Positions 1,567 through 61,746 of a DNA stretch of 64,000 bases are shown here, one piece after another; the stretch's first letter is position 1, and every line of letters starts with the position of its first letter. The notes under the pieces are model-generated. The model was not told where the DNA came from, made no database searches, and saw only the letters and a program-made list of their open reading frames with translations. This DNA is from Takakia lepidozioides (lineage: Eukaryota; Plantae; Bryophyta). The translations under genes and the position numbers were made by a program. The stretch lies in contig CM060733.1 of assembly GCA_030704615.1 (NCBI GenBank), positions 44,764,001-44,828,000 on the forward strand. The letters run 5' to 3'.

Positions 1567-1585
1567 TAGAGAAATCAAACAATAA

Positions 1586-30934: not shown

Positions 30935-31470
30935 CATGACTTTCTTGAACAATTCTGCACGCTGATCACATGCACGTGCCCACACGTCCGGATCGTCAAG
31001 GTTAAGAACTGTAGCAGCTTCTCTACGAATGGATGTAGGGAAATCCGGCTCCCGGCAAAAGAGAAGAAAGTATGGTGAGAATGAGGCAAATGATGCTTGC
31101 TTGCTGAACCTGTAGCCCATGGCTAACCAGGGTAACTGAAGGTCCCAATCTCCTAGGTGTCCCTTCTGCAAGCCATACTTGCGCAAACCCCTCTTTATTA
31201 TCTGAACAACCCTCTCTGCCAAGCCATCGGCCTCAGGATGATCCCGAGAAGTGGTGCGGTGGTCTACCAAGGCTTTGTCACACAAAGCCTGAAACTCCCC
31301 CAAGAACTCTCTCCTTTGGTCCGTGAGTACCTCAGTTGGAGCACCGAATCGGCTAAGTACACAATCCAAGAATGCATACACAGCTCTCTCACTAGCCTTA
31401 TCAGGTAATGGAACCAACTCGATCCACTTGGAGAAGTGCTCCACCATCACCAACACGTACTGGTTGTGGC
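30935..31470 (-). mobile_element. Isolated integrase-core fragment of the same gypsy family as 41414-41948
   Basis: Near-identical to 41414-41948 (YVLVMVEHFSKWIELVPLPDK..LTDQ..DGLAERVV). Confidence 0.9.
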
Positions 31471-31948
31471 GGCAAACCTTTCTTAGAAAATTCTGTCATG
31501 TTGAAAAGAGATATAGCAGAAATCAGTAATGTATAGTCTATATATAAGTAATATATAGATCTCTTACTACCGCACAAAGACACATGAACAAACTCTATAT
31601 TAGAATTTCCAGGGCCTCTGCCCCCTGTTCTGCTAGAAAACAAAAAAAAGATACATGTGCATGTACATCACAATGATTCTCTAAGATGAGATGGATTTTT
31701 TTCTTAAAAAAAAAATTATATCCCACTCGGCCACTTTAGATTTAATCCAAGACCAAGACCAACTCAAATGCAATCTGATTCTATTGGTCGTTTTCTTGGT
31801 CGAGGGCATTTTCTTGGTCATATCCACTAAGACCAAGAAAGTTAAGAATGACAAGTCTCTAAGTTGCGTTGATTTTGGCGGGAGATTGTTGGTCTACTGA
31901 CCAAACCCATCGAATTTGGAAGACCAATTTTTGGACCCTAGACCATCT

Positions 31949-32160: not shown

Positions 32161-34829
32161 ATATTTCTACTCAGCCTACGGATGTCGGCCAGCACAATAA
32201 AGTTATCCGTTAAAGTCAAGGGGATGCATGGTGAGCTCGGCCAGTTTGGTCAAAAGATAGGGTGAATAGGGTGGAAGCGGGCCCACAAAGTACAAGCTAG
32301 ATAGAGAGGGGGCCAAACTCAAAATAGCATAAAAACCAGCCCAAATGTGTTTGATCCCCTCTTCCTCCGCGCGGCACCCACCAGGTGCTGAGACACGTGG
32401 ATGAGCCTAACCCCGGGCCCGCGCTCCCATCATGTTGACCTTCCAACTGATGCCGCTTTGTTCATCTCTAGTGCCCAGTTTACTCAAATTGTGCCCATTT
32501 TATTGGACTTAACGAATAGGCTCAATCTGCCTACCAAAGCTGCATGTGGGGATGGATCATAAGGTCAGAGAGAGGGGGGATAACTTTACTATCTTGGGAG
32601 TTTGGCCGCAGATTTTGACTAAGTTGATGGCCCATACAATCAGCATTGACTCTACTTGTTGTGAACCCCCTTGCCTCTTTCCCCTATCAATCCTCACCCA
32701 CAAGGACCCACCCCCCATCACAATGAGTTTTGCAGCAGATCTTGACTCAGCTCATTGCTGACAAAATCGGTAATTGACTTTTACTAATGTCTTGGTCTTG
32801 GTCTTGGTCTTGGTCCATAGCCCAAAGTCGCCAGAAGAGAGATGAGCACTGTGGATATCCGCCCTCACAAGAGCGAAAAAGGTGCATCGCATGGCACTTT
32901 ATGCAAAACCTGGCCTCAGCGTTCAAGAGCTCCGATTCTTTGGCAGGCTGTCTCTCCAACAAGTTCATCAACGCACATTCCTCTACTAACCTCCCCTCAC
33001 AATTCTGGGCATCGCACACAAGAGAGAACACTGAATTCGTATTTACATTTTGGCGGGTTGCTTTTTTAGTACAGGACGTGATCAATCGTATATCTATGTA
33101 TTTACGTACGTACGTACGTAGACGCCTAGGTAATGTATCCATTTTTTTCATTTTCTAATCCCGCTGAATTGTTTTTATCTATCGAGATCTCATCCGAAAA
33201 CATCTTGGGACCTAATTTTGAGACCTCGTTTGTCCAGCATGTTGTCGCTTCATCCAATTCGGAGAAGATGGATTCCTCGTAATCAACTCTTCACTCCCAA
33301 CGATTAAATCGGCAACAAGTTACACTGGTGCTGTGCAGTTTAGTGATTCCAGTTTTCACTCCATAGTGCTGATCATGATGGGAAGGATGCAAGTCATTTT
33401 CCTTTGCACTTTCTCTCTCCCTATGAAGTTCCTTAGTTTCTCACTTTCTCTTAACAATCACCTGTAATGAGCTGAAGTCCGATATTTGAAACTCGTCAGT
33501 CTTCCTAAGCTTGTATAGTTCAACATCTCCATTGCAATAACTGGAAGTAGGCCTAAATTTGGCATGCATATCCAAGAGGTAGTATTCAGAATCATATTTG
33601 GTACAGTTCCAGCTATCATGATGTCACCGTCATCTCTTTGCCCTTTTTGCCAGGGCACACATTGAGCATTGCTCCTTCCAGCATCATCTGATCCTATGTC
33701 TCCAAGGCTTTTTATTTACCCCACCCATGCTTGGTATATCCTGCAATCATTGTAGTCCAAGAAAAATATATTACTCAGGCACTCTGACAACACTCAGTGG
33801 GCATCCAATATGCTCCCATGTTGACCTACATGTTGAGCACTTATGCAAGAGTATTGGAGTCTGCCAAATTGCCTCCTTGTGCAAATGTAGAGCCTCTTTC
33901 AGTTGTCATGCCTCCCACTGTCCTCACCTGCCCGTAAGTGGCACAAGATCTTGTGGACTCCCCCTCTCTTGGTCATCGTTTAGAAGCTTTGGTCATGGTG
34001 GTCATTCCTGGTCTTGTCAATTGATTTGCTGCAGCTTCCGGCGACCATTTACCCATGCACGTTTCTTTCCCTGCCTCAACAACAACAAATGGATCCTCTC
34101 TTTGCTGCTAGTAGCTAACAATGACAAACTAGAACTTTGTGGAGGAAATACTGCAACCCTACTTACCACACACTAGTTCTTCAATGCATCTTCTTGTCTG
34201 CTTCTCCTTCTGCTGTAAAATAACAGGCATTCACCGGCCTCCAGTGTGCCACAATTGATTGGAATTATTGAAATATTCCTTCCAAAGCTTCTCCTCCTCT
34301 CTAATTTCAGGTTTCAGAGATTTGCCTGCAACCCCATTGGCAATAACATGTCAGACTCGGTTAGGACCACTATAGATCCAACCGTCAAGTGGACAGAACA
34401 AGCTTACATAAGAAAAAGGCACCTTCACCTCATTGTGCTTCACCTTGTGTCATAGAGGCAGCTAGCTTTTCCTTCACCCAAGGAGTTTACCTATCAGTCA
34501 GCCCGAAGGACCTCTTGTGAGCGCTGCTTATGTCTATAGTCCAGTAATCTTGGATTGGTATGTGAAGACCACTGCGGTGCAGCCTGGCCAGCCCTAGTAT
34601 TAAATACAGCCTCCTAAGACCAAGCTGACCCTCACACCAGGGAAAACCCTTAGGCCGTAAACTTTCATGGCCTGCTTAGAAGAACCTATGCCAGCAGTAT
34701 TCACGCTTTTGCAGGACAGACAAACTCCTTGACATTATACATAAAGAAAGCCGCACCTTGCTAACACACTTGTCCCACATTGTGAAGGATCTTCAAGAAC
34801 TTTCGCCATCCATGCTCCATAGTTGACCT

Positions 34830-35690
34830 TCACCCCAAAGCAATTGCCAGGTTCTCATTGCGGTGGTTGAGTGAGAGTTTCTTTTGCTCCTCCTCCACAT
34901 CATGCAATATAAAACCTGTATCAGGCACATACCCAGCTTCCTTCAGCTGCCCAGTCAATATCTTGAGGTCAGCTTGGATTTCCTCAATTTCTGGATGCTA
35001 CTTCTCGTCAACTACAGAAAAACATATTACCGAGTGGTTCACCTCGATGCAGCTCTGGCCTGGCACCTTTCTGAAACCTCTCTCTGCCATTAGTTTTCTT
35101 GTCTTTCTTGTGTACTCCCACCTGCCAGCTTCACCATATATGTTCGATATTGGTACATTCGTTGCTGCGTGCTGTGGAGCCAATTTGAGAGAGCATTTGC
35201 TGCATGTTGTGCTAGCTCCACATCACCATGGATTCTGCAGGCCGGCCTGCTGAGCCAAGGAGGTCCATCATGCAGCCAAAATGCTCCAGTGAGGCCATGA
35301 GCCTGACTCATGGATTTAAAGTAGTGATGGCCTTCATCGACTAGGCCTGCATGGCTGCATAGAGAGAAGAGATCCGAAGGTAATATCATCTAGTGTGTTG
35401 CATTTGTTCAAACAGTTGCACGGCCTCCCTACCACACCCATTCTGACCATATCCTTTGATGAACGCATTCCATTAGACCACATCTTGTTCAGCCATCTTA
35501 TCAAAAACCTAACGTGCAGCCTCTACACTCGCACATTTTGCATACATGTTGACAAGGTCTTCTCCAGATTAATGCATGATCCAATCCCAGCTTTGATGAT
35601 GTCAGCATGGACCTCTTTCACCTTTGCACATATCATGCCCTTGAATAGGCCCAGGGATTGAAATCCGGCATCACTCTCCATCAGAGAAAT
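34830..35690 (-). pseudogene. Degenerate PLS-class PPR-E/E+(DYW) gene fragment
   Basis: CSHAGLVDEGHHYFKSM, ACRIHGDVELA, SNIYGEAGRW..RKLMAERGFRKVPGQSCIEV, HPEIEEI..LKEAGYVPDTGFILHDVEEEQKK..HRNENLAIAFG; many frameshifts and stops. Confidence 0.85.
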
Positions 35691-35716
35691 CCGCATCAAT
35701 AGAACGCTGTTACAAC

Positions 35717-36850
35717 CTAAAGAATCACATAGCAAAGGCAAAGGAAGGCACCAATGCCACAAACAACTGCGGCCGTGTCAAGGCGACCTTCATGCCGGAA
35801 CCTCTTATCCTTCATCACACCTTGCACTTTTAGATACTGGTGGTAAGAGTCCAGAACTTCTGCGTGGTCTTTGCTTTTATCGCAAGTCAATGCCCTGGAA
35901 AGTGTTAGGAGACTGTCCCTCCCATTCAAGTGCGTACCTTCCATATCTTCTAACTGCATGCTGAGTTCCGTTAAACGCAGGGTTGTCTTCACCGCGTCCC
36001 CAACCCCAGTGTTAGAAAACCTGCATTTCATGACAATATTGCACTGGTATGCCACCAGCGAAGTATCTTTTCCCGCGGGAAGAATGGATCCAAAACGAAG
36101 CAGAAAGTCTTCGTCACAAGGCCAATGCCGCTGCCCTACGAGTGGCCGCCAACTCGCAAGATTAGCCATTTGTTTGGTCTTCTTATTGATCAAAATCCAG
36201 CTGACTCTCAGGTTGTCCCAGAGCGCTTTCCAAAACTTCCCTTCCTTCCTCTCCTTCTCCACAGATGCGATCGCAGGCAGGTCCGCCACAACTGTCACCC
36301 CTTCGTACTCCTGTCGGTCTCCATAATCTTCCTCCGAAGACTTAAGTAGATCCACTCTGAAAGGACAATTCGAAAACCAGCCAAGAAAATCGTCCGCTCC
36401 AGGAATACCTGAAACAGTTCTTGACAGTACAGATTCTCCCTTGTAGACCACATCGACAATTGAGATAAAATGGGATGCAGAAAGATCGGAGGGCTCTTCA
36501 TCGAACAAGTCGTCGCAGTCCCACCAAGTCTCACACTCCTTCAGACCAAACTCCTCTTCCTTCGCAACGGACTCCTTGCTGATGATAAGAGGGTAGCAGG
36601 ATGCGTAAAACTTACGGAACCCTCCCATCGACGAGACGATGGACTTGACATGCGGGTCCTTGGTCGAGGGCCAATGCGAGGTACACATCCTTTCCCACAA
36701 AACCTCATCCTCACACATATGACGAAATCCAGAGCTAGCACAGCTTGCCGTTGCCAGAGTCACGGCATCAAGCCGCCTCAAAACTTCATACACGAGGTCA
36801 TCACTCAAGGTTCTTCCATCTCTTCTCCCTACTTGTCGGCGAAGCGCCAT
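35717..36850 (-). CDS. Single-exon F-box protein (At2g27310/At2g36090-like family) with C-terminal hydrophobic segment
   Basis: ATG at 36850 gives a 377-aa uninterrupted ORF; F-box LSDDLVYEVLRRLDAVTLATASCASS..LWERMCTSHWPST; WFSNCPFRVDLL, LRVSWILI, NLASWRP, ELSMQLEDMEGTHLNGRDSL. Confidence 0.88.
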   Translation of the reverse strand: MALRRQVGRRDGRTLSDDLVYEVLRRLDAVTLATASCASSGFRHMCEDEVLWERMCTSHWPSTKDPHVKSIVSSMGGFRKFYASCYPLIISKESVAKEEEFGLKECETWWDCDDLFDEEPSDLSASHFISIVDVVYKGESVLSRTVSGIPGADDFLGWFSNCPFRVDLLKSSEEDYGDRQEYEGVTVVADLPAIASVEKERKEGKFWKALWDNLRVSWILINKKTKQMANLASWRPLVGQRHWPCDEDFLLRFGSILPAGKDTSLVAYQCNIVMKCRFSNTGVGDAVKTTLRLTELSMQLEDMEGTHLNGRDSLLTLSRALTCDKSKDHAEVLDSYHQYLKVQGVMKDKRFRHEGRLDTAAVVCGIGAFLCLCYVIL

Positions 36851-39415: not shown

Positions 39416-40939
39416 AAGTATGCTAGCGGGTTGTGCACCCATGACAGATATTTGAAAAATACAAATGTTGAATTCATTACAAGACAACAACGACGTGGTG
39501 TGAGTCTAAACTCATGCTTGTCTACATGGCTGAATTCATGGCCCATGCCACGCCATCAACTAATAAGGGTGTCTATTCCCGTTGACATGGCTCCCCTATG
39601 GCTGCGGAACAAATTGGAACAATGTGGAAAAAACATGCATCCAACATGGAACATGGAACAAAGTGAAAATGCATGATTCTAGCTTACAAACTGAAATTGA
39701 TACTCGACTTGTACACTTAATACAATCTGAATGATAGAAGAAAACAATGTGTCAAAGATTTAAACAATTTCTTCAACCACAAATAGAGCATACTCTATGT
39801 CCACTATTCACATCCCGTTGCAGAAGAGTATCCACCTATGTGTTGGTGAGTAGTACCGTTTTGTTTGGGATCACAAAACATCACGATAAGAAAAATGTAG
39901 TACAAATGTTTTCTCTGAATATCTTTCCATCTCTTGTCAAGATTAATGGATCGCATAAAAATAAAATTTGGATAGCTGCAATGAAAAATTTATCATTCTG
40001 ATGTCGTACGTCTTGTCTTGCAAACAAATCCAGAGATGACGATTGTGTATACCTATCCATATCATGCAGAATTCCATGAAACGAGTATGCATCAATGCAC
40101 AAGTAGGAACCCCCAGCCTTTCACATTGTCTTTACTACAACATGACAGAGGGCTCAACAGGTAACGGAGATCACATGAGAGATATGGGTTGCTGCAAAAC
40201 AAGTGTTGACACACACTTATTTTCCAGCCCTCGTATATATATATATATACACTTTTGGGCTGCTGCAAAGCATGTGAAGCACCATATTCATGGTGCTACT
40301 TTATTTGGTTCCTCTTATTCTAAACATCAGATTCGTAGAACACAACAAGTTCTCGGAAGTGCTCTTCCTAATATTTGGTTAGAGATGCTTTGTAATTTTT
40401 GTTGTCCCGCTCACTGTACCTACACAGACCATATCAAATGGATATAAACTTGGAAGACAGCCCTATCGACAACATGTTAAAAACATCAAATTAAAAAGCT
40501 AGACATAAAAACAAACAAGGCGATATACTTACATCACGAATTCACCATATATAAATTTACCTTCAAAAAAATCGATATCAAGAACATTATATATCTATGA
40601 GTGTCCTCTTAGACAGAATCGCGACAAAGCATAGAAACAAAATCGTTTCTGACAACCGATAGGATGAGTCATGGCATGGTCTGGATCTGCCAAGCACTCC
40701 GACTCGTCTTTCCAGGTAATATGGTCAGATTTGACATGTCTCTTATTGGCACCCAATTTAAAGGACCTGTCCATCGCAACCACCAAAGCTTGGTGTGCTC
40801 TCTCAAAATATGCATGTTGATTAATGAGAATAGGGACCTCATCAACCCTAGTGCGGCAGACCTCACCACACATATATGCACAATAAAGTAGTCTGCCACA
40901 ATATTTCTTGTTAGCCTTCCATGGTTGTATCAACTCCCA

Positions 40940-41085
40940 CTATCCAATGCAACGTGGACATAACCAATCCCCATCCGGAACCATCTCAAGAGGTAGAGTC
41001 AAGCATCCCATATGCCAACCTCTAGAGCATCGATCACACACCAGCATGGTGGCTGCCCCTTTAGCAGACCCATACAACATGCACC
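40940..41085 (-). pseudogene. PHD finger at the integrase C-terminus
   Basis: CMLYG..MLVCDRCSRGWHMGCLTLPLEMVPDGDWLCPRC* fits C4HC3 with the second Cys replaced by Tyr. Confidence 0.85.
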
Positions 41086-41099
41086 TCAAACCTGCAGAT

Positions 41100-42250
41100 A
41101 CCACTGCCAGGTTTGGGTCGATCCTGACATCGACATTCGGAAGGTGACATGGCACACAATTACGCACATGGTCCTTCCAAGTTATGCCATCCCGACCCTC
41201 CAAGACCAAGACGCCTGAGGGCAAGACCTCTCGAACCCTCAAAATAACACGTCATGCAGTCACATCCAAGGTCGTAGGAACAGTCTGCTGCAGAGAGACA
41301 TAGTCATCAGGGTTGAATCTCCGAACCCCAGGACGTTAGCCCCCACCACGTATGGTAGCATACCTCAACGTATCATGGCGTTGTGCAATGGCAAGGTTCT
41401 CGAAAGCCATGGGCATGACTTTCTTGAACAACTCTGCACGCTGCTCACATACACGTGCCCACACGTCCGGATCGTCAAGATTAAGAACTGTAGCAGCTTC
41501 TCTGCGAATGGATGTAGGCAAATCCGGCTCTCGGCCAAAGAGAAGAAAGTATGGTGAGAAGGAGGCAAGTGATGCTTGCTTGCTGAACCTGTAGCCCATG
41601 GCTAACCAGGGTAACTGAAGGTCCCAATCTCCTAGGTGTCCCTTCTGCAAGCCATACTTGCGCAAACCCCTCTTTACTGTCTGAACAACTCTCTCTGCCA
41701 AGCCATCGGCCTCAGGATGATCCCGAGAAGTGGTGCGGTGGTCTATCAAGGCCTTGTCACACAAAGCCTGAAACTCCCCCAAGAACTCTCTCCCTTGGTC
41801 CGTGAGTACCTCAGCTGGAGCACCGAATCGGCTAAGCACACAATCCAAGAATGCATACGCAACTCCCTCACTAGCCTTATCAGGCAATGGAACCAACTCA
41901 ATCCATTTGGAGAAGTGCTCCACCATCACAACAGTACTTGTTGTGACGCATGGTCAGTGGCAACGGCCCTGCGAAGTCAAGACTCCATCTGTAGCCCAAT
42001 CCCATGATCGGAAGAGGGTGCAATTGTGGAGTAGGGGCGTTGAATGAAGCACGCACCCTGTCACACACCATGCACCTAGCCACAAATTGTTGCACCTCTG
42101 TGTGCATACCACGCCACCAATACTGCCCCTGCAGTAGGCTATGGGTGCGTCGCACCCCAAAATGCCCCAACTCCTCGTGGGCATGCCGCACTAACCATGC
42201 CCGCTGTGTTGGGTGAGGCACAATCCTCACTCGACCATCCTCCCACACTC
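41100..42250 (-). pseudogene. Integrase (HHCC + DDE core + C-terminal region)
   Basis: HEELGHFG..YWWRGM..CMVC; WSLDFAGP; LTDQGREF; DGLAERVV. Confidence 0.92.
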
Positions 42251-42502
42251 GGAGCAGGTGTGTCCCCTCCCACTTGAACCTCTTGGCTCATTGTAGGATC
42301 CGATCCCTCTCCTTGGCAGTCACAGTGGCTGCAGTGTCTCCAGTGTGGAGGTAGTCCAACACAACTGAATCCTCATGTATATCTTTGGTGCCACCTTGCT
42401 CATTGTTGGCCTCAGGGTCCTCAGACACTTGATCTACAGTCATCCTGTTGCAGGTCCAACCTGGCCTTCCGCTGCCAAGATACACATAAATGCAGGTGCA
42501 TG

Positions 42503-42958
42503 TCATTCGGGCACCATCTCCTCGTCCGTCTCACCATGCCACCGAGCTCCAGTGTCATCCTGCTGGCTCGTGCATGGATTGCGACTCAACCCATCTGCAT
42601 TGCGATTGACCAAACCCGGTCGATGCACCACCTGAAAGTCGTACTCTTGAAGGATGAGTGCCCACCGTGCAAGCTTCCCCGTAAGCTTGTCTGACTCCAT
42701 CAACCACTTGAGTGGTTGGTGATCCGTGACAAGGGTGAAGAGATTGTCATATAGATAGCACCTGAAGTGTGCCACGGCCCACACTGCAGCTAAGCATTCT
42801 CCCTTATATGAGCTATACTTAGACTCTGCAGCATTGTTCGAGCGGCTAGCATAAGCCACTACAAACTCTCTTCCCTCATCATCCACCTATGTGAGCACCG
42901 CTCCAAGCCCCAGCATGCTCCAATCTGTATGCAGCTGAAAAAGACGCCCCCTGATAGG
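42503..42958 (-). pseudogene. RNase H (Ty3/gypsy)
   Basis: LHTDWS..GLGAVL, AYASRS, ECLAAVWAV, TDHQPL, ARWALILQEYDF, NADGLSR. Confidence 0.92.
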
Positions 42959-43933
42959 TCATCTCAAGATGGGCGCCGAGGTCAACCTCGCCTTGAGCTC
43001 TTGAAAAGCTTGTTCTTGCTCATCTTCCCACTGCCACTCCTGGTCCACCTTGGTCAGCTTGGTTAGAGCCTTTGCAATGGCACTAAATCCCTTAACAAAC
43101 CGTCTGTAATAGTTTGCTAACCCCATGAAAACTCGAACTCGGCTCACATCCATGGGGCGTGGAACCTTTGTAATGGACTCTACCTTAGTCTGCTGTACCC
43201 CCAATCCTCCAGGATATATCATGTGACCCAGATACTCAATCTGGTTGTGGAAAAACTTGCACTTGCATGGATGTAACTTCAATCCGTGCGTCCTCAAGCG
43301 CTCAAATACCCCCTGAAGGTGTCTCTCATGCTCCTCCACCGTAGCACTAAAGATGATGATGTCATCTATGTAGCACCGAGCAAACTCCACCCCTGCTAGA
43401 ATCCTGTCCATGACTCTTTGAAACTCAGCGAGAACGTTTTTAAGCCCAAATGGTAAGAACCGCCACTGGTATAGGCAATCCTTCCCGTGCTCATTGATCC
43501 CCCAGAATGCCGTCTTTTGCTTATCCACCTCCTTGATCGGCAACTGGTGATATCTGGATCGTAAATCCAATGTGCTAAAGACCTTGGAATGCTCAATGGC
43601 ATCAAAGATCTCCTCTGGTGTCGGCATGGCATACCTATCGGACTTGGTCTGATGATTTACAGGCCGGTAATCACCGCACATACGTCTCTCCGTCCAATTG
43701 CCATAGACATCCTTCTTGGCTGGCATCACTGTGGCTGAAGCATACTCTCCACCAGAGAGCTCCACCAAACCTGCCTCCCAGAGATCTTGAGTCCTCATCT
43801 GAATCAAAGACCTCTCCATGTCACTGTATCTATAGGGTCTCCGAAAGATTGGCGTGTCAGTGGCCAACTCAATACGGATCTCTTGACCCTTCAGTGCTCC
43901 CAAGTCCTTCAAACTGAAGGCAAAGCAATTCAT
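42959..43933 (-). pseudogene. Reverse transcriptase (Ty3/gypsy)
   Basis: RMCGDYRPVN, FSTLDLRSRYHQ, LPFGLKN, CYIDDIIIFS, YLGH, FMGLANYYRRFVKGFS. Confidence 0.95.
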
Positions 43934-44369
43934 GTAAGCCCTCAGGAACCGCCGTATACGTCGTCTCTCTCCTCCGGTGACAATCGGTCCAATGTCAGGC
44001 TCCCAATTGTCCTCCGTAACTGCAACCTTAAGTCCAGTGGGCTTATAGGTAGAGGACGCGTCCCGTGGTTGCTATGCTGCAACCTCTTGAGCAGCACTCC
44101 CTTCTTGCTCAATCAATGACAAGGCCTCATCCTGCCCCATCATCTCATCATTGAGAACCTCCTCATCCCGAGAAGAATCCCCAACCTCATCCATCACAGC
44201 TGCCTTGGCTGCCAACTCCCTCTGAACCTCGAGCACCTCCCACGTGTGCCATGGATGTCTACACCCCGTGGTCCTCACCGGCTCGCCCCCACTCGCTGCC
44301 TGTACCGTCTCGGTAGGCAGAGAGACCGTCAAGGGAAGTGCACTCCGCACTCTACGTTGCTCAGCCATA

Positions 44370-45320
44370 GCCAAGCTGATAATCCAAGTCAAGCAATTGA
44401 GATCCATTGCTTGCCCCAACATCTAACAACGTGATGCCTCAGAAAGAGAAGGCACCGCCGTGGTCCCAGTGGAAAATCCCATAGCCCGTTCTCGCTCGTC
44501 GGCATTAGGCTCCACTAACTGTTGCAACTGGCTATCCCACAAGAGGCCAGGTCCACCATCCCGAAAAGCATGGATCCTGGGAAGCTGAGCAGTGTAGGTA
44601 ATGTTGCTCGTGGTTGACCCACCCTGTTGACCATTGCCAAAGGCGAACGGTCATCGTGTCTCACACGTTGAGACTACCTCCCTGTGTCCAAAATGCCATC
44701 CACGTGAGGTGTGCTGGCCGCTGCACCCCATCAAATGCACGCTTGAGCAGTGCGGGTGGCATCAAGTTAGTCCACCAAAGCCATGGACGATGAGCCCGTG
44801 ACCCCACTGCAGCTGCATCCAGCAACACTGCTGACCCAAGCCACGACCGGACTTGATGCACACTGGCCATCACCCTGGCCCGAGAACCGCCCATCAGTGG
44901 CACATTCTCCAAGATGTATGCTGGCGATACAGCTTGATGAAGCTGCAAGTGGCGCAAAATCCGCACCATCTCCCAAAACAGACCCGTCCTCGAGTCTCGC
45001 AATCCATTGCCATGTCCGGCTGATGAATGCCCTTGGCAGGGCCAACCTGCCACTACCAAATCAATGGAGCCAACCTGCTCCAAATCCGGCGCCCCCAACA
45101 ACGAAATGTCTACTGGCAAGGCTTGTTGGTATCCACAAACTGCAGACACTGGCAACAAAGCAGGGTACTGCTGTACCAACTGAGCAACATGGCGCAGTGA
45201 GATGCGTCGTGCAGTCTTATCCCTCTCCACATACAGGTAACGCCTTACCCGCACACCTGCCTGTAGCACAGCAGCCAATCCGGTGCTGATCCCGCCAAAC
45301 AAGTCCAGAAGGCAAATGCC
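44370..45320 (-). pseudogene. C5-cytosine DNA methyltransferase domain (DNMT3-like, motif order I-X) within pol
   Basis: I LLDLFGGISTG; II YVERD; IV IDLVVAGWPCQGHSSAG (catalytic Cys at 45036-45038); V GLFWE; VI YILENV; VIII SRAHRPWLWWTNL; after a frameshift near 44700, IX ERERAMGF and X LGQAMDL. Confidence 0.9.
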
Positions 45321-45769
45321 TTCATCCGGATACTGCCTCACAATAGGTGTGGTATCCAATGGTGACAACTGAGGTGGTCCTGGTGCAATACCCGCACTCT
45401 TCTCCTCTCCTGACGGTACAAAAGTCTCTACCCAGGCTTGTTGCACCCGTCGATCAGCAACTTGCTGCAAATCCTTGCTCGTACCCCACAATGGAGTGTG
45501 AGCAATCATGGTAGGCAACTCCGCCATACCATGTATGTCATCCTGCTCTACTGGAGGTGGCACATCCTCTGCATGGGCATTGCCTTCCAGCAATTCTCCA
45601 AGCCAACTAACTGCAGCTGTAAAGGCGGCTAATGTTGGCATCTTGCCCCGTTGGGCAGCCGCAATACCCCCAATGAATGTCACAGGGTGTTGTGCACGAT
45701 GACCATCCCCTGACTGCCATCCAGGCCTGTAGGATGCTGACTCCTCCCAAAAGTCCAGGGTGAAGCCCA

Positions 45770-46050
45770 TGGGATATAACACTGCCCCACCAACGAGGAC
45801 ATCGTAAGAGACCGCGTCTGTCACAATGGCCTTGACCTGCATCACTGAGCCATCTACACGATGATCCGGCTGCAGTCTAATGGCCAACTGATGCCGTGTC
45901 ATGCCCCAAGTCTGCTCTGATCCTCCCAGAGATGTCTGTATCTGGAAAGGACAAGGCTCCATATCCACCTCCATGAGGCCCAAACCTGCAATAGCAGCTC
46001 TGCCCAACATCAGTGGCTGGGCTCCCGAGTCCAACAAGACCCGTAGTGGC
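45770..46050 (-). pseudogene. Retroviral-type aspartic protease domain
   Basis: RVLLDSGAQPLMLG ... YDVLVGGAVL inside ORF 44661-47168. Confidence 0.85.
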
Positions 46051-46949
46051 CGATACTTCTTGCCTGCCGGTCCACTCAAAGAGAAAATGCCATCCTGGTT
46101 GTCTAACAAGACAACTCCAGGTGTCACCATGGCGCGCTCAAAGGCTGGCCTAGCTAGAAGCTCCGTCAACCTGGCAGCTGCAGCTTGCCATGGCGCAGCC
46201 GTGGCAGTCTTGACCCTCAAATACGAGGATCCCTCTGCCACTACACCTTTCAGTAACTCCGCAGAAGATGATGTGACCTCCCCACTCTCACAGAGTGTTG
46301 CTACTAGTCTGAACACTGCAGCTGGTCTTACCCCCGGCGTCGCAATCATGGTTGCCAAGAATAGTGGGGCTTGACACACAGAGGTGGCTGCCCCCAACAA
46401 CACACCGGCTGCACTAGCCTTGGCAGCAGGTGTCAGTGCTGCACGTGTAGATCTCCCCAATGGCATAGAAACCTCCGCCTCGGTAACAGTCGGGCGAGAA
46501 CTAGGTGCCATGGATGGCGTTGACACTGTCTCCCCCAAGATGAATGACTGAGGCAGCCTCGCCTGACGGCTTGCCTCCCCACGTTGTGGATCCAACTCCA
46601 CCTCTGCACCTCGTGGCTCAAGATTTCGTACTGCTCCTCCAGTCACGGCTGCAGCAGACTCCACCTGCTCTAGTGGTAGTGCTGCTCCGCACATGAATCC
46701 CATGCCTCCCATATCTCCTCCCTCAGGAACAGGAGGTGGACCATCCCGCCTGGGAGCCGGTACCGCCTGAGCTGTAGCCATGGCAGCGAGCCTCTGCTCT
46801 AGCTGCTGAAGCCGGTTGACCATGCCTTGGTCAACACCCTGACCTCCGCGTCCTTGGCCATGTTGAGCTTGCCCTTGGCCTGCACCTCGTGCCCGACCAC
46901 CTCGTCCTCTCTGGGCTGGTCCACCTCGCCCCCGGCCACCATTGTTCCC

Positions 46950-48266
46950 TTGGAACTGGCCTGGGCGCAACTCAGGATGCAAGTCATAACACTGGGCATC
47001 TCCATGCCCATACTTGCCACAATGCCCACACTGCAACTGTGCAGGCTGTGTTTGTGCCAGCCTTTTGCCACTCTTTGGGCAATCTCTCTTGACATGGGGT
47101 CCTCCACATGTCCAACATATCACCCCTGGTTGCTGTTGGCCTGCAAAAGATGCCACGGGCCTCTGCACCTGAGGTCCCCTGTAAGCTCCATGGAACTTGG
47201 GTTGGGAAACCTTGCCCCCCTAACCACGCTGTTGGGCAGTCCCTTGTGCCTGTGGGCTGGCAGCTGCGCCTCGTGCATGCATGTCCTTGCCAAACCCAAT
47301 GGTAACAACTCGCTCCTCCACCATGTTGAGCTCAATCCGCTCAGCCAGCAGAAACACATCTGCTAATGTGGGTTGGGCTGCTTGTAACAGGGTTGCATCC
47401 CGCACCCTTCTCCTGAGCTCCTTGTTCAAAATTCCATACCGGAACTGGATTGCCTGAGCTTCCCCTTGGGTCACACTTATCAAGCGCCTCATACGAGTGT
47501 AGGCCTCTCGCAAGCTCTCACTGGGTTTGCGCTGGAAGTCTTGCAAACTTCGCAGCTTCTCTGTCCATACACCTTGGTAGTTCCTCCGCAACTCCTGGAA
47601 GAACTCCACCACCGGGTTGAATCTAGGCACATGTGTTGTAGTCGTGGCAGGAGGAGTAGTAGCACCTTTTGAACTGGTACCACCTGCAGAAGTACCGGCA
47701 CTACTTGTTCCACTTCTAGTATTGGTAGTGGGAGGTATTGGTACTGATGCAGCTACTGGTCGCGTCGTGCCTCGAGTAATGGAGACGTAGTCAGGTGACC
47801 AATACATCCTCCACTCCTCAATCTCTGCTTCATGTCCTCGCCTGAACTCGTGGTAATAGTCCATAGGCGGGCCTTCCAAATGCTGGAACAGTCTCTTCCA
47901 CGCCATGAATGGGGTGAATAGCTGTGGATTGCGCATCTGCTGCAAATCACACCAGCTGTCGAACTCCTGGATAAAGTCATCCAACTCGATTGTGCCCACA
48001 GCTCCAGAGTACCTACGAGGCCCCTTGGTAGCTCCATACATCTCCTCCATGTCGTCCCACAACAATGGCGAATGAAACTACACACCTGTTGATGAAGCCT
48101 CCGAGTCTGTGTCTGACTCTGCACTAGTTGAGGGTGGAGGTGAAGGTGGTCTGAAACGAACACCTCGTCTGGTGAACCCACTCTCACTGCTATTGCCTGT
48201 AGCCGTACTCCCCTCAGAACCCCTGGGTAACTCCGTGATGACACTCACAATGTGTACCTCCCCCAC
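46950..48266 (-). pseudogene. Gag with two CCHC zinc knuckles
   Basis: ORFs 48266-48078, 48065-47220 and 47168-44661 share one frame separated by TAG stops; QDFQRKPSESLREAYTRMRRL; CWTCGGPHVKRDC and CGHCGKYGHGDAQC. Confidence 0.8.
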
Positions 48267-51200
48267 GTGACACTATAAGGCTCTATTACTAATTCTAATA
48301 GTGACACGGGTAGGCACCTGTTGCAGTTTTAAGGGTCATATCCCAGTGGCTCAGGGCACCTGCACCTGCATCCACTGCAAGAACTCCTATGGTTGGCTGG
48401 TCATCAACCCAGTCTCACCATAGAAGAAACACTGGTGGTCTTGCTGGTCATCACTCCAGCCTCACCACCGACAACATACTCTAGGATTGACCGGTGATCA
48501 AATCCGGCCTAATCCCTATGAAAGCAAGCACCCACACAAAACCAACATGGCGCACAGTCAAGCATGCAGGTGTTGGGGGGGATCCAAACACAAGAAATCA
48601 AAACATCAACACCCCCACACCAAAATCCATCTGCAGTGCTGACCTGCAGAATATCCCAGCCCAAAACCCCGGACTGACTGGCCTCCACCAAGAGAGACTT
48701 TGGCAACTACAAGTACAAAGTAATGAAAATAGTAAAGAGATGGAGGGGAAGAATAGAAGCCCGACCAAGCAAGATCTAATCCTGATCTATGCTATCAACT
48801 GCCAGACTTCTCTCAAAGTGCCTCGCTCTGCATGATGGTAAGGTGTAGGAGGTATATCTATGTCCAGAAACCTGCCACTAACCTTGTCCTAAGCTACAGT
48901 AGCTCGCTCTAACCAACCCTCCTCCTCTTTCTACCATGTAGAGACAAATCAATACTCCCCTATCTCCCGCTCACTGAACACTAAAGAAAACAAAGGTAGG
49001 GTCTGATAGTCTCTCAACTCGAAAGCTTTGAGACGGTTGCGGGTGTCCTCATTGCGAATGACTGCATCTCCTTCAAACAGAACAAACTTGTCCTCGCTAA
49101 TGAACCCCCGCTCGTGGTTGTCTTGTGCAGAGCGTGTCCGGCTGCAACGCTGTCTGATTGCACAAACTTGTGTAGCTCCTGCTCCTCTACTCCAATACAC
49201 ACACGGCCTTGTGGCTGAACACCTTGGTCCACGGGGCTGTCTTTGGCTGTGTTCCAAGCCTACCTTTAACCCACTTTGGTATTTCACCTACAGCTGCAGA
49301 ACTGCTGGCTCCAATAGAGTTCTGATTGTCCAAGGCGATATTGAGGCCCTCAACGCCAACTACAGCAGTCTGTTGTCTACTGCTAATGCCTGACTCCCAG
49401 TATGCAATCAACTCGTCCAACTGTTCTCTACTCAAATCAGTCTGAGTTCCTTGGGAAACATAAATCTTGTTCCCTTGTGTGCACAGGTTAAGAGTCGAGA
49501 CCTACCCTTCAATTACGTCCTCATTTCCCCCAGCCATACAAGGAGGACATCCACAGGCTTGTCTCTCATATAGACCAGAACAGGTTCTAGAAACAGAATT
49601 GTGGATCTTTCATGGCACACTCACACTCTAAAAATTCCATAGATTTTTAGCAGAGTCCAAAAAACAAAAACCAGGTCTGCATAGGTAGATTTCCCCTTTC
49701 TGCAGCTATCCTCTCAAAAAATGAGTCAAACGGAGCTCATTTGACAAAGATATGACCAACCATGCTCTTTAAACATAACATTTTTTTAAAAATAAAATAA
49801 AATTAATAAGACAAAACAAATACAAGGAATTTTTTATTTTTATTTTTTCAATACTTGTCTTGGTTCCCTGTTCCCTGGTTCCCTAAGAATTCCTTGGACT
49901 CATAAACTGCAAGGCCAATTGGTCCTGAAAGAAATGTCCTCACATTAATCACGCATTCAGTATGCTCAGGGGAGAGAGGCAAGGCGGACGCAGATGATGG
50001 CAGCGATGGCCAAGCCTGCGCAAGCAAGCAGGAACAAGGAGGTGGTGCGGGGTGTTGGCCGATTCGGCCGATCAAAGACCTGATCAAAGGGTTGCACATG
50101 AGCAGCTTGCATGCTCGTCAATCTCCAAAGCCATGCAGCAGAGATGCCCGTCAGCTCCTACCAGCTCCTGGTTCTGCTCAGTCCTCACGGCTACCTACTC
50201 TTTGTCGTACACAACACTCAAAACCAGAAATCACCCTCGCTCCCCTTCAGGCTCACGAGGTTCAAGCTGGTTCCACTCACACAGGATGTCCAGTGAATGC
50301 TTGGAAGTCTAGTACACCACAGCACTCGGCTTAGAACAAGCACCTCCAGGGAAGCAGTGAAGCTGCGATTTCCTACTTATCTCTTCAGTCCGCCTCTCAT
50401 CCTCACATCAGCATTTCGCACGCAACGATTCGCAGATGACAACCTCTCTACCATCCTCCACGCTACAGCGGAGTTGCAGCAAACTGGTCTGCACCACAAG
50501 GAAAGAGGTCTGCATCTGGAGCATTGGAAGCCCTATCTTCCGGACTCACTTGCAATGGCTCTGACTTGTGCAGATCACCCAACCAGGCACATACGGGTAT
50601 GTCCCAGCTGCAAATCTTCTTTCTCAAATCGTCATGGTCAAAACCTTCCCTAGAGCTAGAACACTTTGCGCATTTCAGTCAACGTGAACTTCGTCCCCCT
50701 TCTTCAACAGCTCTTGAACACCTTCAGTTGGACTATCACGATGTGGGAAATTAACTATATTATCCGGCACACCTCCAAAAGGACGAGGTCCGATTGAACA
50801 ACACACTTACTGTCAACGAATGTGGTGCACAGTCAGGAACACTTGTTTTTGCAAACCTGGAGTAGGACACTTGAAGTGCACGTGGTGCGCAATCCCTCTC
50901 TGGCTTTTGTGTTTCCTTTCATGGACGTCTGTTGTGGAGCAGGAAACCATGTCCGTGAAGTACTTCCACTACTTGTGTCCACACCACCATGTCCAGCCAG
51001 CTTGATGCTAATGATCGCCGTCTCTCTCATCCGACCCTCAGCAGCCTGTCGTGCTCACCCCCTCCACGGGAACTTCATTCGATAGAGAGAGATCTGTTTT
51101 CCTGAATCACATAGCTGCGCCTCTGAAACCGTATCCTATGTTGATTGCTTATTCTTGCATAAAGCGTAGGAAACGCAGCCCGCAGTTCACAAGCACTAAG

Positions 51201-52214: not shown

Positions 52215-55200
52215 TTTAACTTGACAAACCCTTGAGGCTGCTCCATATAAACCTCCTCCTCCAAATCTCCATTTAAGAAGGCGGTTTTCACGTCCATTTG
52301 ATGGACCTCCAGATTTGATAGTGCGGCAATAGCCAAAATAGTCCTGATAGAAGATATCTTTGCAACAGGTGAAAATGTCTCATTATAATCCACTTTTTCT
52401 CTCTGAGAAAAACCTCTTGCAACTAGTCTGGCTTTATACCTTTTCACTGATCAATCCATCTGCTTTAAGTTTGAGTTTATAGATCCACTTACATCCAACA
52501 GTCTTTCTCCCTTGTGGAAGTTTAGTTAGCTTTCAAGTACCATTCTTTAGTAAGGATGCAAACTCTTCATTCATAGCCTTTTGCCATCTTAACGCCTCTC
52601 TACAACTGAGAGCTTCCTTAAATGACACTGGCTCTTCATTTTCAACAAGCATTGTTTGTAACAAATCAAGAGATTCTATGAGTCTTTGACTGGGTCTTCT
52701 CTCTCTCATGGACCTGCGAACTTGGATATCAAGTTGAACCCTAGGTGCTCGTAGTTGAGGTTGAGCCACTTGAACATTTGCTGGAATATTACTTGGCTGT
52801 GATGTCTCTATTTCCTCATTAGAGCCAGAATCACAATCTTTGTCCATGTCCAAACCTAGATCCACATTTGATCCCTTCTCAGGCTCACCACCTCGAAGTG
52901 TCTTTGGTTTCCATGCTTCATTGAAAACCACATCACGACTAACTAACAAGACTTTGTTAGCTAGATCAAACAACCGATAGGATTTACTGGCTTTCGAATA
53001 ACCCACAAAAATACACTTTGTGCTTTTATCATCAAGCTTCTTCGTATTCTCCTTAGGGATATGAACAAAAGCTTCACAACCAAAAACACGTAAATGCTTC
53101 GCTGAGGGCTTCTGGCCAGTCCACACTTCCTCCGGTGTCCTTCTTGGCACAACACTTATAGGTACCATGTTTAATACATAGTTGGCCGTTTGCACAGCAT
53201 CTGCCCACCATTTGTTGTCTAACCCACTATGCTTCAACATTGTCCTTGCTGCTTCTACCAATGACCGGTTCTTACGTTCAGCCACCCCGTTCTGCTCTGG
53301 GGTGTAAGGAGCAGTCAATTGATGCTCAATTCCTTCTCTCATGCAAAATTGAGCAAAAGCATTTGATTTGTACTCCCCTCCATTGTCAGAGTGCAATTTC
53401 TTGACTCGCTTCCTTATCTGTGTTTCCACCAGAGACTTATAGATCTTGAACTTGTCTAAAGCTTCACTTTTATTCTTCAGAAAATAAACTAGTGTTCTTC
53501 TAGACAAATAATCTATGAACGTCATAAAGTATTTTGTTCCTCCAATTGATATTGTTTGCATGGGGCCGCAAACGTCTGAATGTACCAACTCCAACAACTC
53601 CACGACACGACTTCCTCCTCCTTTAGGAAATAAATGCCTATGTTGTTTGCCAAATATGCACTCTTCGCAAAAAGATTTTCCAACTGAGCAATCAATATTG
53701 AAATCTTGAACCATGTTCTTAGAATGCATTAGACGTAGAGTTTTATACTGAGATGGGCCAGCCGACGATGCCAAAGATCAATTCTTCTGTCTTTGACGAT
53801 TAAGGCACTTTCAGACGCTTTATCTTGAGGTAAGACTGAAAAAACACACAACTTATACAAGTTACCTTCTCTCACCCCCTTCGCCACCACATCTCCATCT
53901 GTTGTCTTCAAAAGACAATAATTAGCATGAAACTCAAGTTGTAATCCAGAGTAACTTTACTCATTGACAGTAAATTCTTGGTCAACCCTGGAACAAATAA
54001 CACATCATTTATATATTTCTTTCTTCCTTCTTGTATAAAACAAACCTGGCCTTGACCCTGAATTATGTGACTACTGTCGTCTCCCAAGTAAACCTTCCGA
54101 ACAAGATCCCATTGTTTGTACTTTACAAACAAATCTTTGTGAGAGGTCATATGTTGAGAAGCCCCCGAGTCAATATACCAGTCATCAAGATCCTTTGAGA
54201 AAGAAGTAGAGAGAGTTGTAACAAATAGTTTCTCACAATCAATACTATCGGCATCCTCCACTGAATGAGCTTGGGTCTTTCCATCTCCCTTCTTCATCTG
54301 CCCATCTGTCATTCTCTTCCTACATTGTTTCGCCATGTGACCGACTTTCTTGCAATAAAAGCATTTACCCTTCAATTCTTTTTCGCAGGTGTAAGAGAAC
54401 TACTTGACAAACTATTTGATGACCATTTTGTTAGTGTACTACTAATACTCATATTGTTATTTTTATTTGCTTCTGAGGCTCATTTCTTTTTATTAAGACC
54501 TGATTTCCTTCCAGCAAATAAAGCAACACTCTCAGTTGTCCCAACCCCGAAATCTCTTCGCCTCATCTCTTCTTGTAGTAGCATTCCAGTTACCCTTTCT
54601 ATAGTCAACGCTTACTGACTACTAAGAGAAATGACTAGGCTATCAAAAGATTCAGGTAGACTGCCTAATAAGGTGATTACCTGATCGTCTGCAGACACAG
54701 GAGACCCTATCCCTGCCAATTGATCGATTAATGATCTAAAGTTACTAACATGCTCTGCTACATATTCTGATTCAGACATTTTTAAACGGAGCAGTCGTCT
54801 TTTTAAATAAAGCTTAGAAGTGACATCTTTCGTTTCAAATACTGTCATTAAATGATCCCACGTTGCATTAGATGTTGTAGCCTGACTGACATGCAAAAAC
54901 TGAAAGTCTTTTAAGTTTAATAGGATTGATGCAAGTGCTTTTCCATCTCTCTTCCCCCACTCTTTCACAACATTTTGATCTGTAGCAGCAGGCTTCGCTT
55001 CAGTCCCATCTAATATGGACCAAAGATTTCTATCTAAAAATAGCATTCCGATCTTCAGCTTCCAAATATGGAAGTTTTCTCCGTCGAAACGTATCTATTA
55101 AACGGAGTTTTCCCGAGTTCCTGACTACTCCAGCCATGCTTACGAATTGATCTAGTTCTCTCTTAGAAACGACACTGTCTTTCCACCTTGCTCTCTAAGT

Positions 55201-56120: not shown

Positions 56121-56330
56121 TTTAGCTTAGCTGGCAGCCTTGCTGTCACAGCATCTTGGGTGCAATATGGGTACCCTATGCATCAGAAGAATCACGGGAT
56201 CAGCATCGGCGATCCTCTGCCGTTTATCCTTTCTACCTAGTATGCACGCTCTGCTGAGCTGTATTTCCCCATACCAGCTTAACACTACAGAGGAAGGAGA
56301 ATCTCTAGTGGAGCAGGAATACGCCTTGAC

Positions 56331-57575
56331 AGAGCGTATCTACTTAGGTCTCCCGAGGAAGACGATGGAGACGAACATGAGCACGAAGGGGTGACAGTTA
56401 TGGCGGACCTGCCTGCCATCACATCTTTGGAGAAGGAGAGAAAGCAAGGAAACTTTTGGAAAGCGCTCGTACACTCAACCCTCATTGGGCCAAGCCCAAG
56501 AAATTTGAAATGGGACTGTTGGGCTTGTCTTGGGTGACGTTTTCTTCCACAATCCCTGAGTGCGGATTTCATCTTGAGGCTAAAATTGAGCAAAACAATT
56601 ATATTTCAATGCTAAGCTTCTTGGTCTCCACCGGTCGGGAAGTGTTCCTTTCCTTTTGGGCTGGCCCAACAAGTTGGCACCATAACTAACGCAATGTGGG
56701 CACGTAAAAACCAGTACCACATACTTGGCTTCCTTCATCTGCCCAGCCAATCTCTTGAGCTCAGCATGGATTTCCTCAATTCGTGGATGCAACTTGTCGT
56801 CAACTACAGAAAAACATATTACCGAGTGGTTCACCTCGATGAGCTACGCCCTGGCACCTTTCTGATGCATGGATGTTGCTGAAAGCTAAAGTAGCACTCC
56901 GTCATAAAGAAACCTTCGATGCTCGTGGAGTTTGTGGCACGAAGGTCAACAATGGAGCAGGGATGGCAAGAATTCTTGAAGATCCTTCACAATGGTGGGA
57001 CAACTGTGTTGGCAAGGTGCGGTTTCTTTATGTATGATGTCAAGGAATTTGTCTGTTCTGCAAAAGGATCAATACTGCTGGCGTAGGTTCTTCTAAGCAG
57101 GCCATGAAACTTTACTGCATAAGGGGTTTTCCTGGTGTGAGGGTCAGCTTGGTCTTAGGAGGCTGTGTTTAATGCAAACGGAAGGCTTGAAGCCACACAG
57201 TATCACTTTGGATGTGTTCTCTCTGCATGTAGCCATGTTGGCGCTCCGATTCCCTAAGTCAAGATGAGGCGTCACTTGTACAGTGGATCACTTTGCCTGA
57301 TGTTGAACCTTGGTCGGGCAATTGGAGGCTTAGGGCTTTATTGAAACCCAATGCTTCTGTGTGCAAAGCCTTGCTCGGTGTGCGGAATTCATGGCAGTAT
57401 GGAGGTGGCAGAACGTCGATTCTCAGGCAGGATGTGGAACATGTGTTGTCCAAATGTTGATGCTGCAGCTGGCAGGTGGGATGATACTGGAAAGGTGACA
57501 ACAACGATGAAGGTCAGAAAGGAGTAAATCGAGGCTGGATTGAGATCGGCAGTGAGGTGCTAACCTTCATTTCCA
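56331..57575. pseudogene. Mosaic of F-box and PPR fragments related to 34590-36360
   Basis: 56331-56468 is an inverted copy of F-box 36221-36360; 56715-56862 is a direct copy of PPR-E+ 34925-35072; 56941-57175 is an inverted copy of 34598-34832; 57190-57575 has + strand PPR/E motifs (VLSACSHVG, KPNASV.KALLG, AAGRWDD, GWIEIGSEVLTF). Confidence 0.75.
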
Positions 57576-60734: not shown

Positions 60735-60894
60735 GTCGGTCCCACGGCAGAGCAAAATCGGGACACTGTCACATCCGGTTGTCGGTCCCACGGTAAACGT
60801 GCCCGGAAAAGCGCAATAGGGACACTGTCACATCCGGTGAGTCGGTCCCACTGTAAACGTGCCCGGGAAAGCAAAATACGGACACTGTCACATG
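60735..60894 (+). repeat. Tandem repeat, ~3 units of 45-60 bp
   Basis: gtcggtcccac..ggacactgtcacat repeated three times. Confidence 0.85.
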
Positions 60895-61282
60895 CGCCAA
60901 CGACGCCGCCCAGATGCCATCCAAAAGAGCGATAACCCGACGATTCCTGAAAAGTACTCGAGATTTTTATTGACACATTTGTGATCTTTTCCCGCAGTCT
61001 GTATCAATATCCAGGCAAATTAAAGGTGCTGCTAAATTTTATTTTAAAAAAAAGGGGGAATATCGATAATTAATTAATTAATGGACCACACCTTTGTGAA
61101 AATAATAATAATAATACATCCAACCCCAAATATCTTTTTTCTTTAAGCATGTGCGGAAGGAGGTTATGGACTCGTCACGGTTCTGCCCACATATCTGGGG
61201 AAATGGGTCTAACGTGACGGCTGTAGGCGTGGAATTGGGTGTAAGTAACTAACTTTTGGTGGAGTTCTTCTCTCCCGAAGGT

Positions 61283-61550
61283 TCTATAATCCTCTTCCAC
61301 CAGCGGCAGGAATTTTCCTCTGTATTTCAGGGAATACTTACCGTGCGCAACAGTCCACCATCTGGGCCGGGCGAGGACCTTCTAATCCTCTACCACCAGC
61401 TGCAGGAATTTTCCTCTGTATTTCAGGGAATGCTTACCGTGCGCAGCAGTCCACCATCTTTGGGCCGGGCGAGGACCTTCTAATCCTCTTCCACCAGCGG
61501 CAGGAATTTTCCTCTGTATTTTGGGGACGCTTACCGTCAATCCACCATCG
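61283..61550 (+). repeat. Tandem repeat, ~2.7 units of ~98 bp
   Basis: aatcctcttccaccagcggcaggaattttcctctgtattt..ccaccatc repeated. Confidence 0.88.
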
Positions 61551-61746
61551 GAGCTAGCGCGGATACTCCTTCCAATTTTTCCCACTCCACTGAGGGAGGG
61601 TTGACCCAATGTTTAAACTCAGGGTGTCGCCGAATTTAATCCGTTAAGATCAGTGGCAGACTATTCCTTCTTTGAAGTGTGGTGGATTAAGATGCTGACA
61701 TGGAATTCGCACCTTCATATGGAATAATAAGGATGTACATTTTTTA

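Follow-up and report, generated by a model that had tools for sequence, protein, structure and literature searches.

Retrotransposons that carry a DNMT3-like cytosine methyltransferase (DNMT) have been described as KnitGypsy-Dnmt3 in the charophyte alga Klebsormidium nitens and as SymbioDIRS-Dnmt3 in dinoflagellates (de Mendoza et al. 2018, PMC5890265). The SymbioDIRS-Dnmt3 enzyme methylates CG de novo in yeast, and self-methylation of the cDNA was proposed; the Klebsormidium domain gave no methylation of yeast DNA, a result that the authors call inconclusive (PMC5890265). The Klebsormidium kind is cited under 'streptophytes' in PMC12344493 and in bioRxiv 10.64898/2026.05.21.726589, which declares its EpiLTRs and DAM-LTRs distinct from the streptophyte Gypsy-DNMT3. 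In the literature searched, the term 'Gypsy-Dnmt3' occurs in PMC5890265 and that preprint only. The cellular DNMT3 of moss has de novo CG and CHH activity (PMC6453930).

The accessible text of PMC5784723 gives five Marchantia DNA methyltransferases, none of the retrotransposon kind, and neither 'methyltransferase' nor 'PHD' was found in that of PMC6317226. The accessible text of PMC5890265 mentions neither Marchantia nor PHD, and the land-plant form is not described in the accessible parts of PMC12885004, PMC6453930, PMC11244446, PMC11982613 and bioRxiv 10.1101/363937. The Gypsy-DNMT3 kind has thus been described before, in a charophyte alga. The literature searched yielded nothing on its form in land plants, on the stop layout with its putative readthrough or on the PHD finger, though Repbase, figures, preprint supplements and most subscription papers could hold such an account.

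The current work concerns a stretch of 64,000 nucleotides from Takakia lepidozioides (hereafter the window). Its minus strand carries a decayed, dead Ty3/gypsy element, a member of an abundant family, in which the domains follow one another as gag, zinc knuckles, protease, DNMT, reverse transcriptase (RT), RNase H, integrase and PHD finger (Table 1). The order gag-protease-RT-RNase H-integrase, with a DDE integrase as the last of these, is that of Ty3/gypsy elements.

The window element and its methyltransferase

Table 1. Parts of the retrotransposon in the window, in the order of its minus strand
Feature	Position	Strand	Evidence
5' non-coding part of the element, upper boundary not fixed	48051..49700	-	Contig depth
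Gag (capsid region)	47223..48050	-	Alignment with the N-terminal part of Marchantia P0004; Retrotrans_gag under the cut-off (E 0.005)
Two CCHC-type zinc knuckles of Gag	46980..47125	-	Sequence; tblastn with the knuckles of P0004
Aspartic protease (LLDSGA)	45725..46140	-	Pfam PF13650/PF13975 E 0.003, below curated cut-off
DNMT3-like C5 cytosine methyltransferase, motifs I-X unpermuted, broken here	44360..45350	-	Pfam, alignment, PDB rankings
Family-conserved in-frame stop TAG CAA CCA, end of ORF1 (stop itself 44074-44072)	44066..44074	-	
Reverse transcriptase, start of ORF2, in the same frame as the end of ORF1	42959..44071	-	RVT_1 E 2e-28
RNase H, with stops	42503..42958	-	RT_RNaseH E 2e-27
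Integrase, zinc-binding domain and DDE core	41336..42287	-	Integrase_H2C2 E 1e-16, rve E 5e-11
PHD finger, C-terminus of integrase	40940..41110	-	PF00628 E 8e-10
3' end, truncated ahead of the 3' terminal repeats	40860..40939	-	Contig depth

The gag part of the window copy is cut from the zinc knuckles by a stop at 47222-47220, where Marchantia P0004 runs uninterrupted. The protease matches the Pfam-confirmed proteases of the relatives P0069, P0076 and P0313 in a local profile; a sequence search found no solved relative of it. The integrase changes frame near 41930, and further stops lie in gag, RT/RNase H and integrase. Summed contig depth remains far above that of the flank as far as 49700, where the covered stretch ends; at 40860 it drops from about 7e5 to about 130, and the contigs continue unlike the window. 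No terminal repeat pair was found within the 64-kb window, the repeat of the related locus L054 has no match in it, and a self-complementary primer site was not found in the 5' region of the element.

Other features were also observed in the window. A decayed Ty1/copia element with gag and integrase lies at 52533-55094 (minus strand), a chromovirus-type integrase tail with SH3 and chromodomain at 12679-13206 (minus), and a GC-rich decayed RT-bearing element of the non-LTR type at 682-4558 (plus), inside which a 172-nt tandem duplication occupies 1586-1911. There are also an intronless-looking F-box gene of a streptophyte family (35717-36850, minus), a helicase-like remnant with Helicase_C at the cut-off (27249-28196, plus) and a 328-codon ORF with no Pfam match (22515-23501, plus). 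At 60781-62786, tandem repeats (60, 96, 221 nt) are clustered with inverted ones. Further repeats are dispersed near 32000, 37800 and 56000, and 34600-36360 forms inverted arms with 56330-57170. A second fragment of the retrotransposon family was seen at 30862-31471, where an integrase piece 95% identical to 41414-41948 adjoins a short, oppositely oriented protease piece.

The stop-to-stop ORF 47219-44661 (minus strand) contains the zinc knuckles, the protease motif LLDSGA and the DNMT motifs I (LDLFGG, about 45311), II (YVE), IV (GWPCQ), VI (ENV) and VIII (AHRP); motifs IX (ERERAMGF) and X (LGQAMD) are also present in the domain. The canonical order of the C5-methyltransferase motifs given in the initial annotation was confirmed, Pfam PF00145 matching with E 4e-12, as was its placing of motifs I-VIII in one ORF with the knuckles and the protease. 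It had also noted that there are no introns; natural homologous proteins align colinearly with this stretch of the element, so that no intron is needed. The same annotation called the methyltransferase complete and fused inside pol, and neither description holds as worded. The window DNMT has frame changes near 44703 and near 44571 and in-frame stops at 44676-44674 and 44425-44423, and the second arginine of its motif VIII is replaced by W; R occupies this place in 54 of 75 related loci. The catalytic residues are thus not intact in this copy; they are the family state in related loci. Moreover, the in-frame stop between DNMT and RT is found family-wide.

By sequence and fold the window DNMT is DNMT3-like and closest to DNMT3A, an affinity read from PDB sequence and fold rankings. 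A single-sequence PDB search placed DNMT3A first (2e-8), followed by M.HhaI (3e-4) and DRM2 (2e-3). With a 19-sequence profile the values were 8e-26 for DNMT3A, 1.8e-11 for DRM2 and 8e-10 for M.HhaI; entry 4onj, a tobacco DRM, stood between DNMT3A and DRM2 at 1.5e-15. An AlphaFold model of the unbroken relative P0001, rather than of the window copy, is confident across the DNMT domain, and a fold search with this model returned DNMT3A/B at the top (TM 0.82 by target length to 6f57, E 2e-17). An origin from DRM, CMT or MET1, which the initial annotation had already dismissed, was rejected: the motif order I-X is unpermuted, and there is no BAH or chromo match.

In intact copies the DNMT is quite likely to be catalytically active, as a de novo enzyme. 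In motif VI the E is present in 70 of 79 related loci and the N in 76 of 79; the SAM-binding motifs II and X and the arginines of motif VIII are also the family state and hold in algal relatives. Counts for motifs I and IV carry no weight, because both served as search patterns. The fold could instead have been kept for binding and not for catalysis, coating or shielding the cDNA or RNA or acting as a decoy for host silencing proteins. The inactivity of the Klebsormidium domain in yeast (PMC5890265) agrees with such a role, and production at the level of Gag, which is discussed below, would suit a structural protein; however, the preservation of motifs II, VI, VIII and X, shared with algae, speaks for catalysis and makes a binding-only function improbable.

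Spread, trees and selection

When the DNMT piece was compared with 4327 candidate proteins, 35 longer proteins matched: 21 from Marchantia polymorpha (partly redundant between annotations), 2 from Calypogeia fissa, 2 from Sphagnum and 10 others. An exhaustive search gave 543 cluster representatives at E <=1e-10, the best 150 of which were returned, and a metagenome scan gave 182 relatives, from which 80 loci were kept. Relatives with the domain order of the window are found in Marchantia, Calypogeia, Sphagnum, Closterium and metagenome loci, and the nearest named relatives are liverwort and moss elements. Among loci with enough sequence on the side in question, a protease precedes the DNMT in 53 of 62 (over 900 nt available upstream) and RT follows it in 48 of 58 (over 1300 nt available downstream). 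In run X1, summed contig depth rises from 110-130 in the flank to 0.3-1.3 million over the element; this is not a copy number, but it points to a family of very high abundance. A 5-kb contig from another organism (run X9) covers the DNMT through the PHD finger.

The Marchantia and Sphagnum models P0004, P0006, P0015 and P0024 are ORF1 of this retrotransposon family, and some of them carry the UniRef label DNA (cytosine-5)-methyltransferase. P0353, in the cluster of P0041, is an RT-RNase H-integrase-PHD member filed under uncultured cyanobacterium; it is probably plant DNA in a metagenome bin.

A one-off capture of a host DNMT3 gene by the window copy, or a neutral passenger, might be suspected from the decay of this copy, and the related loci cannot reveal copies that lack the DNMT, because they were found via the DNMT. 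Nevertheless, the depth of run X1 over the DNMT bins (0.66-1.17 million) is of the same order as over the RT bins, the DNMT has the same position in liverwort, moss and algal elements, the trees are congruent, and dN/dS is low. Capture by a single copy, contradicted by family-wide presence and purifying selection, was rejected, and its probability is close to nil.

The initial annotation had likewise proposed a family trait instead of a single capture, and this was supported by the relatives in Marchantia, Calypogeia, Sphagnum and the loci; the protease-DNMT-RT order that it had suggested looking for in other bryophytes is there in named liverworts and mosses. Its idea of an embryophyte gypsy lineage with its own DNMT stands in part: the DNMT is a family trait in liverworts and mosses, but the domain is not an embryophyte invention, since streptophyte and chlorophyte algae share this lineage. 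It had further suggested a DNMT tree with a matching RT tree and dN/dS among copies, the results of which are given below.

In an RT tree of 83 rows that have both RT and DNMT, a branch of support 99 splits 27 DNMT-before-RT rows (including the window, Marchantia, Closterium and loci) from 56 with RT-RNase H-DNMT-integrase; this and the other trees are quick and unrooted, with SH-aLRT support only and long-branch warnings. The second architecture, RT-RNase H-DNMT-integrase-PHD, was observed in P0170, P0304 (Scenedesmus), P0030, P0032 and further proteins, and the chlorophyte Scenedesmus is its sole named member. The DNMT tree needs two changes. RT and DNMT distances agree (Mantel rho 0.64, 0 of 499 permutations). 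A tree of 136 RT rows, with 19 of the 56 kept, separates 37 chromodomain and animal gypsy rows with support 99, and three Klebsormidium RTs, none shown to be KnitGypsy-Dnmt3, fall on the DNMT/PHD side of this unrooted tree. The window lies within a group of 17 rows (support 99) together with Marchantia, Calypogeia and a transcript of Coleochaete scutata. The trees favour long joint inheritance of RT and DNMT; horizontal transfer is compatible with them, and they do not give the direction of the domain's move. In a different subclade, another Calypogeia RT is found together with a DNMT-RT protein (P0055, P0050), so that several lineages of this sort may be present in liverworts.

Purifying selection acts on the DNMT, as measured by pairwise Nei-Gojobori counts on natural copies. 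Between families, DNMT dN/dS is <=0.23 in 9 of 9 pairs, with synonymous sites at or near saturation. Comparisons of the window with L001, L003 and L007 gave <=0.11 for the DNMT, 0.05-0.06 for RT, 0.12-0.14 for the protease and 0.26-0.46 for the linkers. Within the largest family, where 51 distinct copies are dominated by decay, DNMT values are 0.55-0.66, above RT (0.44), and linker values 0.79-0.87; saturated pairs make RNase H and integrase unusable there. From singletons to common variants in 50 copies, the ratio of nonsynonymous to synonymous changes in the DNMT falls from 187/56 to 81/52 (odds ratio 2.1, p 0.001), compared with 1.0 (no change) for linkers and 1.6 for RT, RNase H and integrase, in a test that omits the more distant element L065 and is blurred by recurrent CpG mutation.

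The ends of the relatives do not form a plain pair of equal LTRs. Instead, split direct repeats are arranged as A1, the ORFs, a polypurine tract and B1-A2-B2, a DIRS-like layout that the 3' truncation of the window copy removes from view. Of 20 loci examined, 10 have B1/B2 pairs; L054, L062, L064/L066 and L078 show the arrangement in full. The termini are TG...CA, with a 4-bp target duplication in 3 of 4 complete loci (L054, L062 and L078; not L064). Element spans with split repeats and a DDE integrase include L054:1679-10805 and L062:3711-14910. The B/A and A/B joins in L054 and L025 read CA-nn-TG, resembling the junctions of repeat circles. Split repeats in gypsy elements beyond those of PMC5890265 are described in none of the literature matches listed. 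In L054, L028 and L007 the sequence directly behind A1 can pair over 17, 12 and 10 nt with a site inside A, about 30 nt behind a TATA-like box. This self-complementary primer site, seen in 3 of 6 loci tested and not in L062, L064 and L078, suggests a self-priming that would be Tf1-like.

The stop before the reverse transcriptase and a proposed mechanism

Motif X and the RT start are both present in 52 rows (51 loci and the window), which reduce to 42 distinct ones. The nearest in-frame stop upstream of RT is TAG (24) or TAA (9), followed by CAA, in 33 of these 42, although the 33 contexts are not independent and come mostly from one family, with about three independent lineages. As a control, CAR follows 31 of 975 other in-frame stops. 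One of the nine remaining loci has an insertion just past such a stop, and another reads TAG TAG CCA; the other seven are heavily decayed and of a distant family, in which L067 and L074 still show a stop followed by CAA or Gln. That the stop at 44074 is mere decay was rejected, as it is shared across family loci.

Protein models end at the corresponding place. Annotated Gag-protease-DNMT proteins of Marchantia and Calypogeia have their C-terminus 98-100 aa past motif X, with the exceptions of two metagenome proteins (78-79 aa) and one Marchantia model (36 aa), and the nearest RT relatives are proteins of about 1040 aa with RT-RNase H-integrase-PHD only. The conserved stop separates DNMT from RT, and thus ORF1 is Gag-protease-DNMT and ORF2 is RT-RNase H-integrase-PHD.

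UAG-CARYYA is the plant or TMV-type readthrough signal, which works at about 10% in vivo for TMV and for which the C at +4 is essential (PMC2754532, PMC5397192). The stop before RT is likely to be leaky in the same manner. As in the TMV type, CAA and a pyrimidine follow the stop, and a polymerase ORF continues in the same frame (PMC2754532, PMC5397192); the difference is that most copies here have CAACCC and that their readthrough is a prediction from sequence. Readthrough candidates among rice gypsy elements are cited in PMC2754532. No readthrough site of this family is described among the 15 of 543 literature matches listed. A conserved RNA structure after the stop was not clearly seen (z -0.7 to -1.8).

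ORF2 might also be expressed through splicing or re-initiation, the CAA being incidental. Spliced junctions between gag-protease and RT are found in Ogre elements. The largest family has an ATG two codons past the stop, and 30 of the 33 contexts (29 CAACCC, 1 CAACTC) miss the last base of CARYYA, which is fully matched in 3, with TAG CAA CCA in the window and L003. That ATG is, however, absent from the window and L003, both ORFs lie in one frame, and stop-CAA-CC has been preserved even across families with saturated synonymous sites. Splicing or re-initiation is therefore considered unlikely, and readthrough is taken as the basis of what follows.

Most ribosomes would quite likely stop after Gag-protease-DNMT, while a minority would continue into RT-RNase H-integrase-PHD. 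Such termination would bring the DNMT to the level of Gag, roughly tenfold over RT if the readthrough rate is TMV-like, and active copies would load their particles with many DNMT molecules. In algal relatives DNMT and RT share one ORF (Closterium and other single-ORF relatives), or the DNMT lies between RNase H and integrase; they keep the DNMT without the stop, so that dosage at the level of Gag is not required for its retention.

With moderate confidence, we favour de novo methylation of the cDNA within the particle by a DNMT made at the Gag level and released by the protease. The lack of methylation by the Klebsormidium domain in yeast, inconclusive to its authors (PMC5890265), and the algal relatives that have the DNMT behind RNase H or in one ORF with RT weigh against this reading. 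Whether the protease would free the DNMT inside the particle, and the DNMT would then methylate cytosines of the new cDNA, probably CG, before or at integration, is evenly balanced when taken as a step by itself. If the cDNA were methylated in the particle, the new copy would arrive marked like host repeat DNA, and the mark might then be kept up by the maintenance methylation of the host.

The PHD finger may aim integration at silent chromatin. Its best solved relatives are CHD4, KDM5B, PHF21A and KDM5A, and the AIRE finger is also close. The fingers of CHD4, KDM5B/KDM5A, PHF21A and AIRE are readers of unmethylated H3K4. Steering of insertion by the integrase PHD towards nucleosomes with unmethylated H3K4 is conceivable, slightly short of an even chance, and such a role would echo the ADD reader of animal DNMT3.

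A different site of action may be considered, in which the DNMT travels with the pre-integration complex, or comes from the Gag-side protein, and works on DNA already integrated in the nucleus, methylating the insertion site, older copies or competing elements. In that case the retrotransposon would limit its own burden on the host, with no disguise of the cDNA. A benefit to the host is raised in PMC5890265, the PHD reader is co-conserved with the DNMT across both architectures, and in chlorophyte-type elements the DNMT directly precedes the integrase. In the land-plant layout, however, the DNMT belongs to the Gag side and is separated from integrase and PHD, which fits a role in the particle better; action in the nucleus is accordingly rated as rather unlikely, and methylation in the particle remains the preferred reading.

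A broader scenario is offered tentatively, and as a whole it is doubtful. A gypsy lineage spread over green plants, from chlorophytes to liverworts and mosses, would have retained both a DNMT3-like writer and a PHD reader from a time before the colonisation of land. In its land-plant branch the leaky stop would make the DNMT a stoichiometric, virion-like component, so that each copy would be methylated in the particle and aimed at H3K4-unmethylated chromatin; the split repeats and the self-complementary primer site would mean an unusual, circle-based route of integration by a DDE integrase.

Comparison with known systems

The DNMT-bearing retrotransposons described in 2018 came from algae that are hard to manipulate. 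Marchantia polymorpha is a genetic model with many loci of this family, and the role of the DNMT is thus directly testable there; methylation mutants of this species de-repress transposons (bioRxiv 10.1101/363937). The conserved stop predicts an enzyme dosage at the level of the capsid, which is concrete and checkable. Some annotated 'DNA methyltransferase' genes of liverworts and mosses are transposon ORFs, and bryophyte methylomes may have had a transposon-encoded writer.

The host DNMT3 of seed-free land plants has the same unpermuted DNMT3-type catalytic domain, but is encoded by cellular genes outside retrotransposons (Yaari et al. 2019, PMC6453930). EpiLTRs and DAM-LTRs, also LTR elements, likewise combine DNA methylation with chromatin reading; their enzymes, however, are a DNMT4-like and an adenine methyltransferase with a chromodomain (bioRxiv 10.64898/2026.05.21.726589). 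SymbioDIRS-Dnmt3 shares a retrotransposon-borne DNMT3-like domain with the present family, but is a tyrosine-recombinase element and, according to its authors, an independent acquisition (PMC5890265). KnitGypsy-Dnmt3 is likewise a Ty3/gypsy element; its DNMT3-like domain is intronless and unpermuted and evolves under purifying selection, and its repeats are laid out as in DIRS elements (PMC5890265). In KnitGypsy-Dnmt3, however, the DNMT is described inside the Pol ORF, whereas in the family of the window a stop intervenes and the DNMT forms the end of ORF1.
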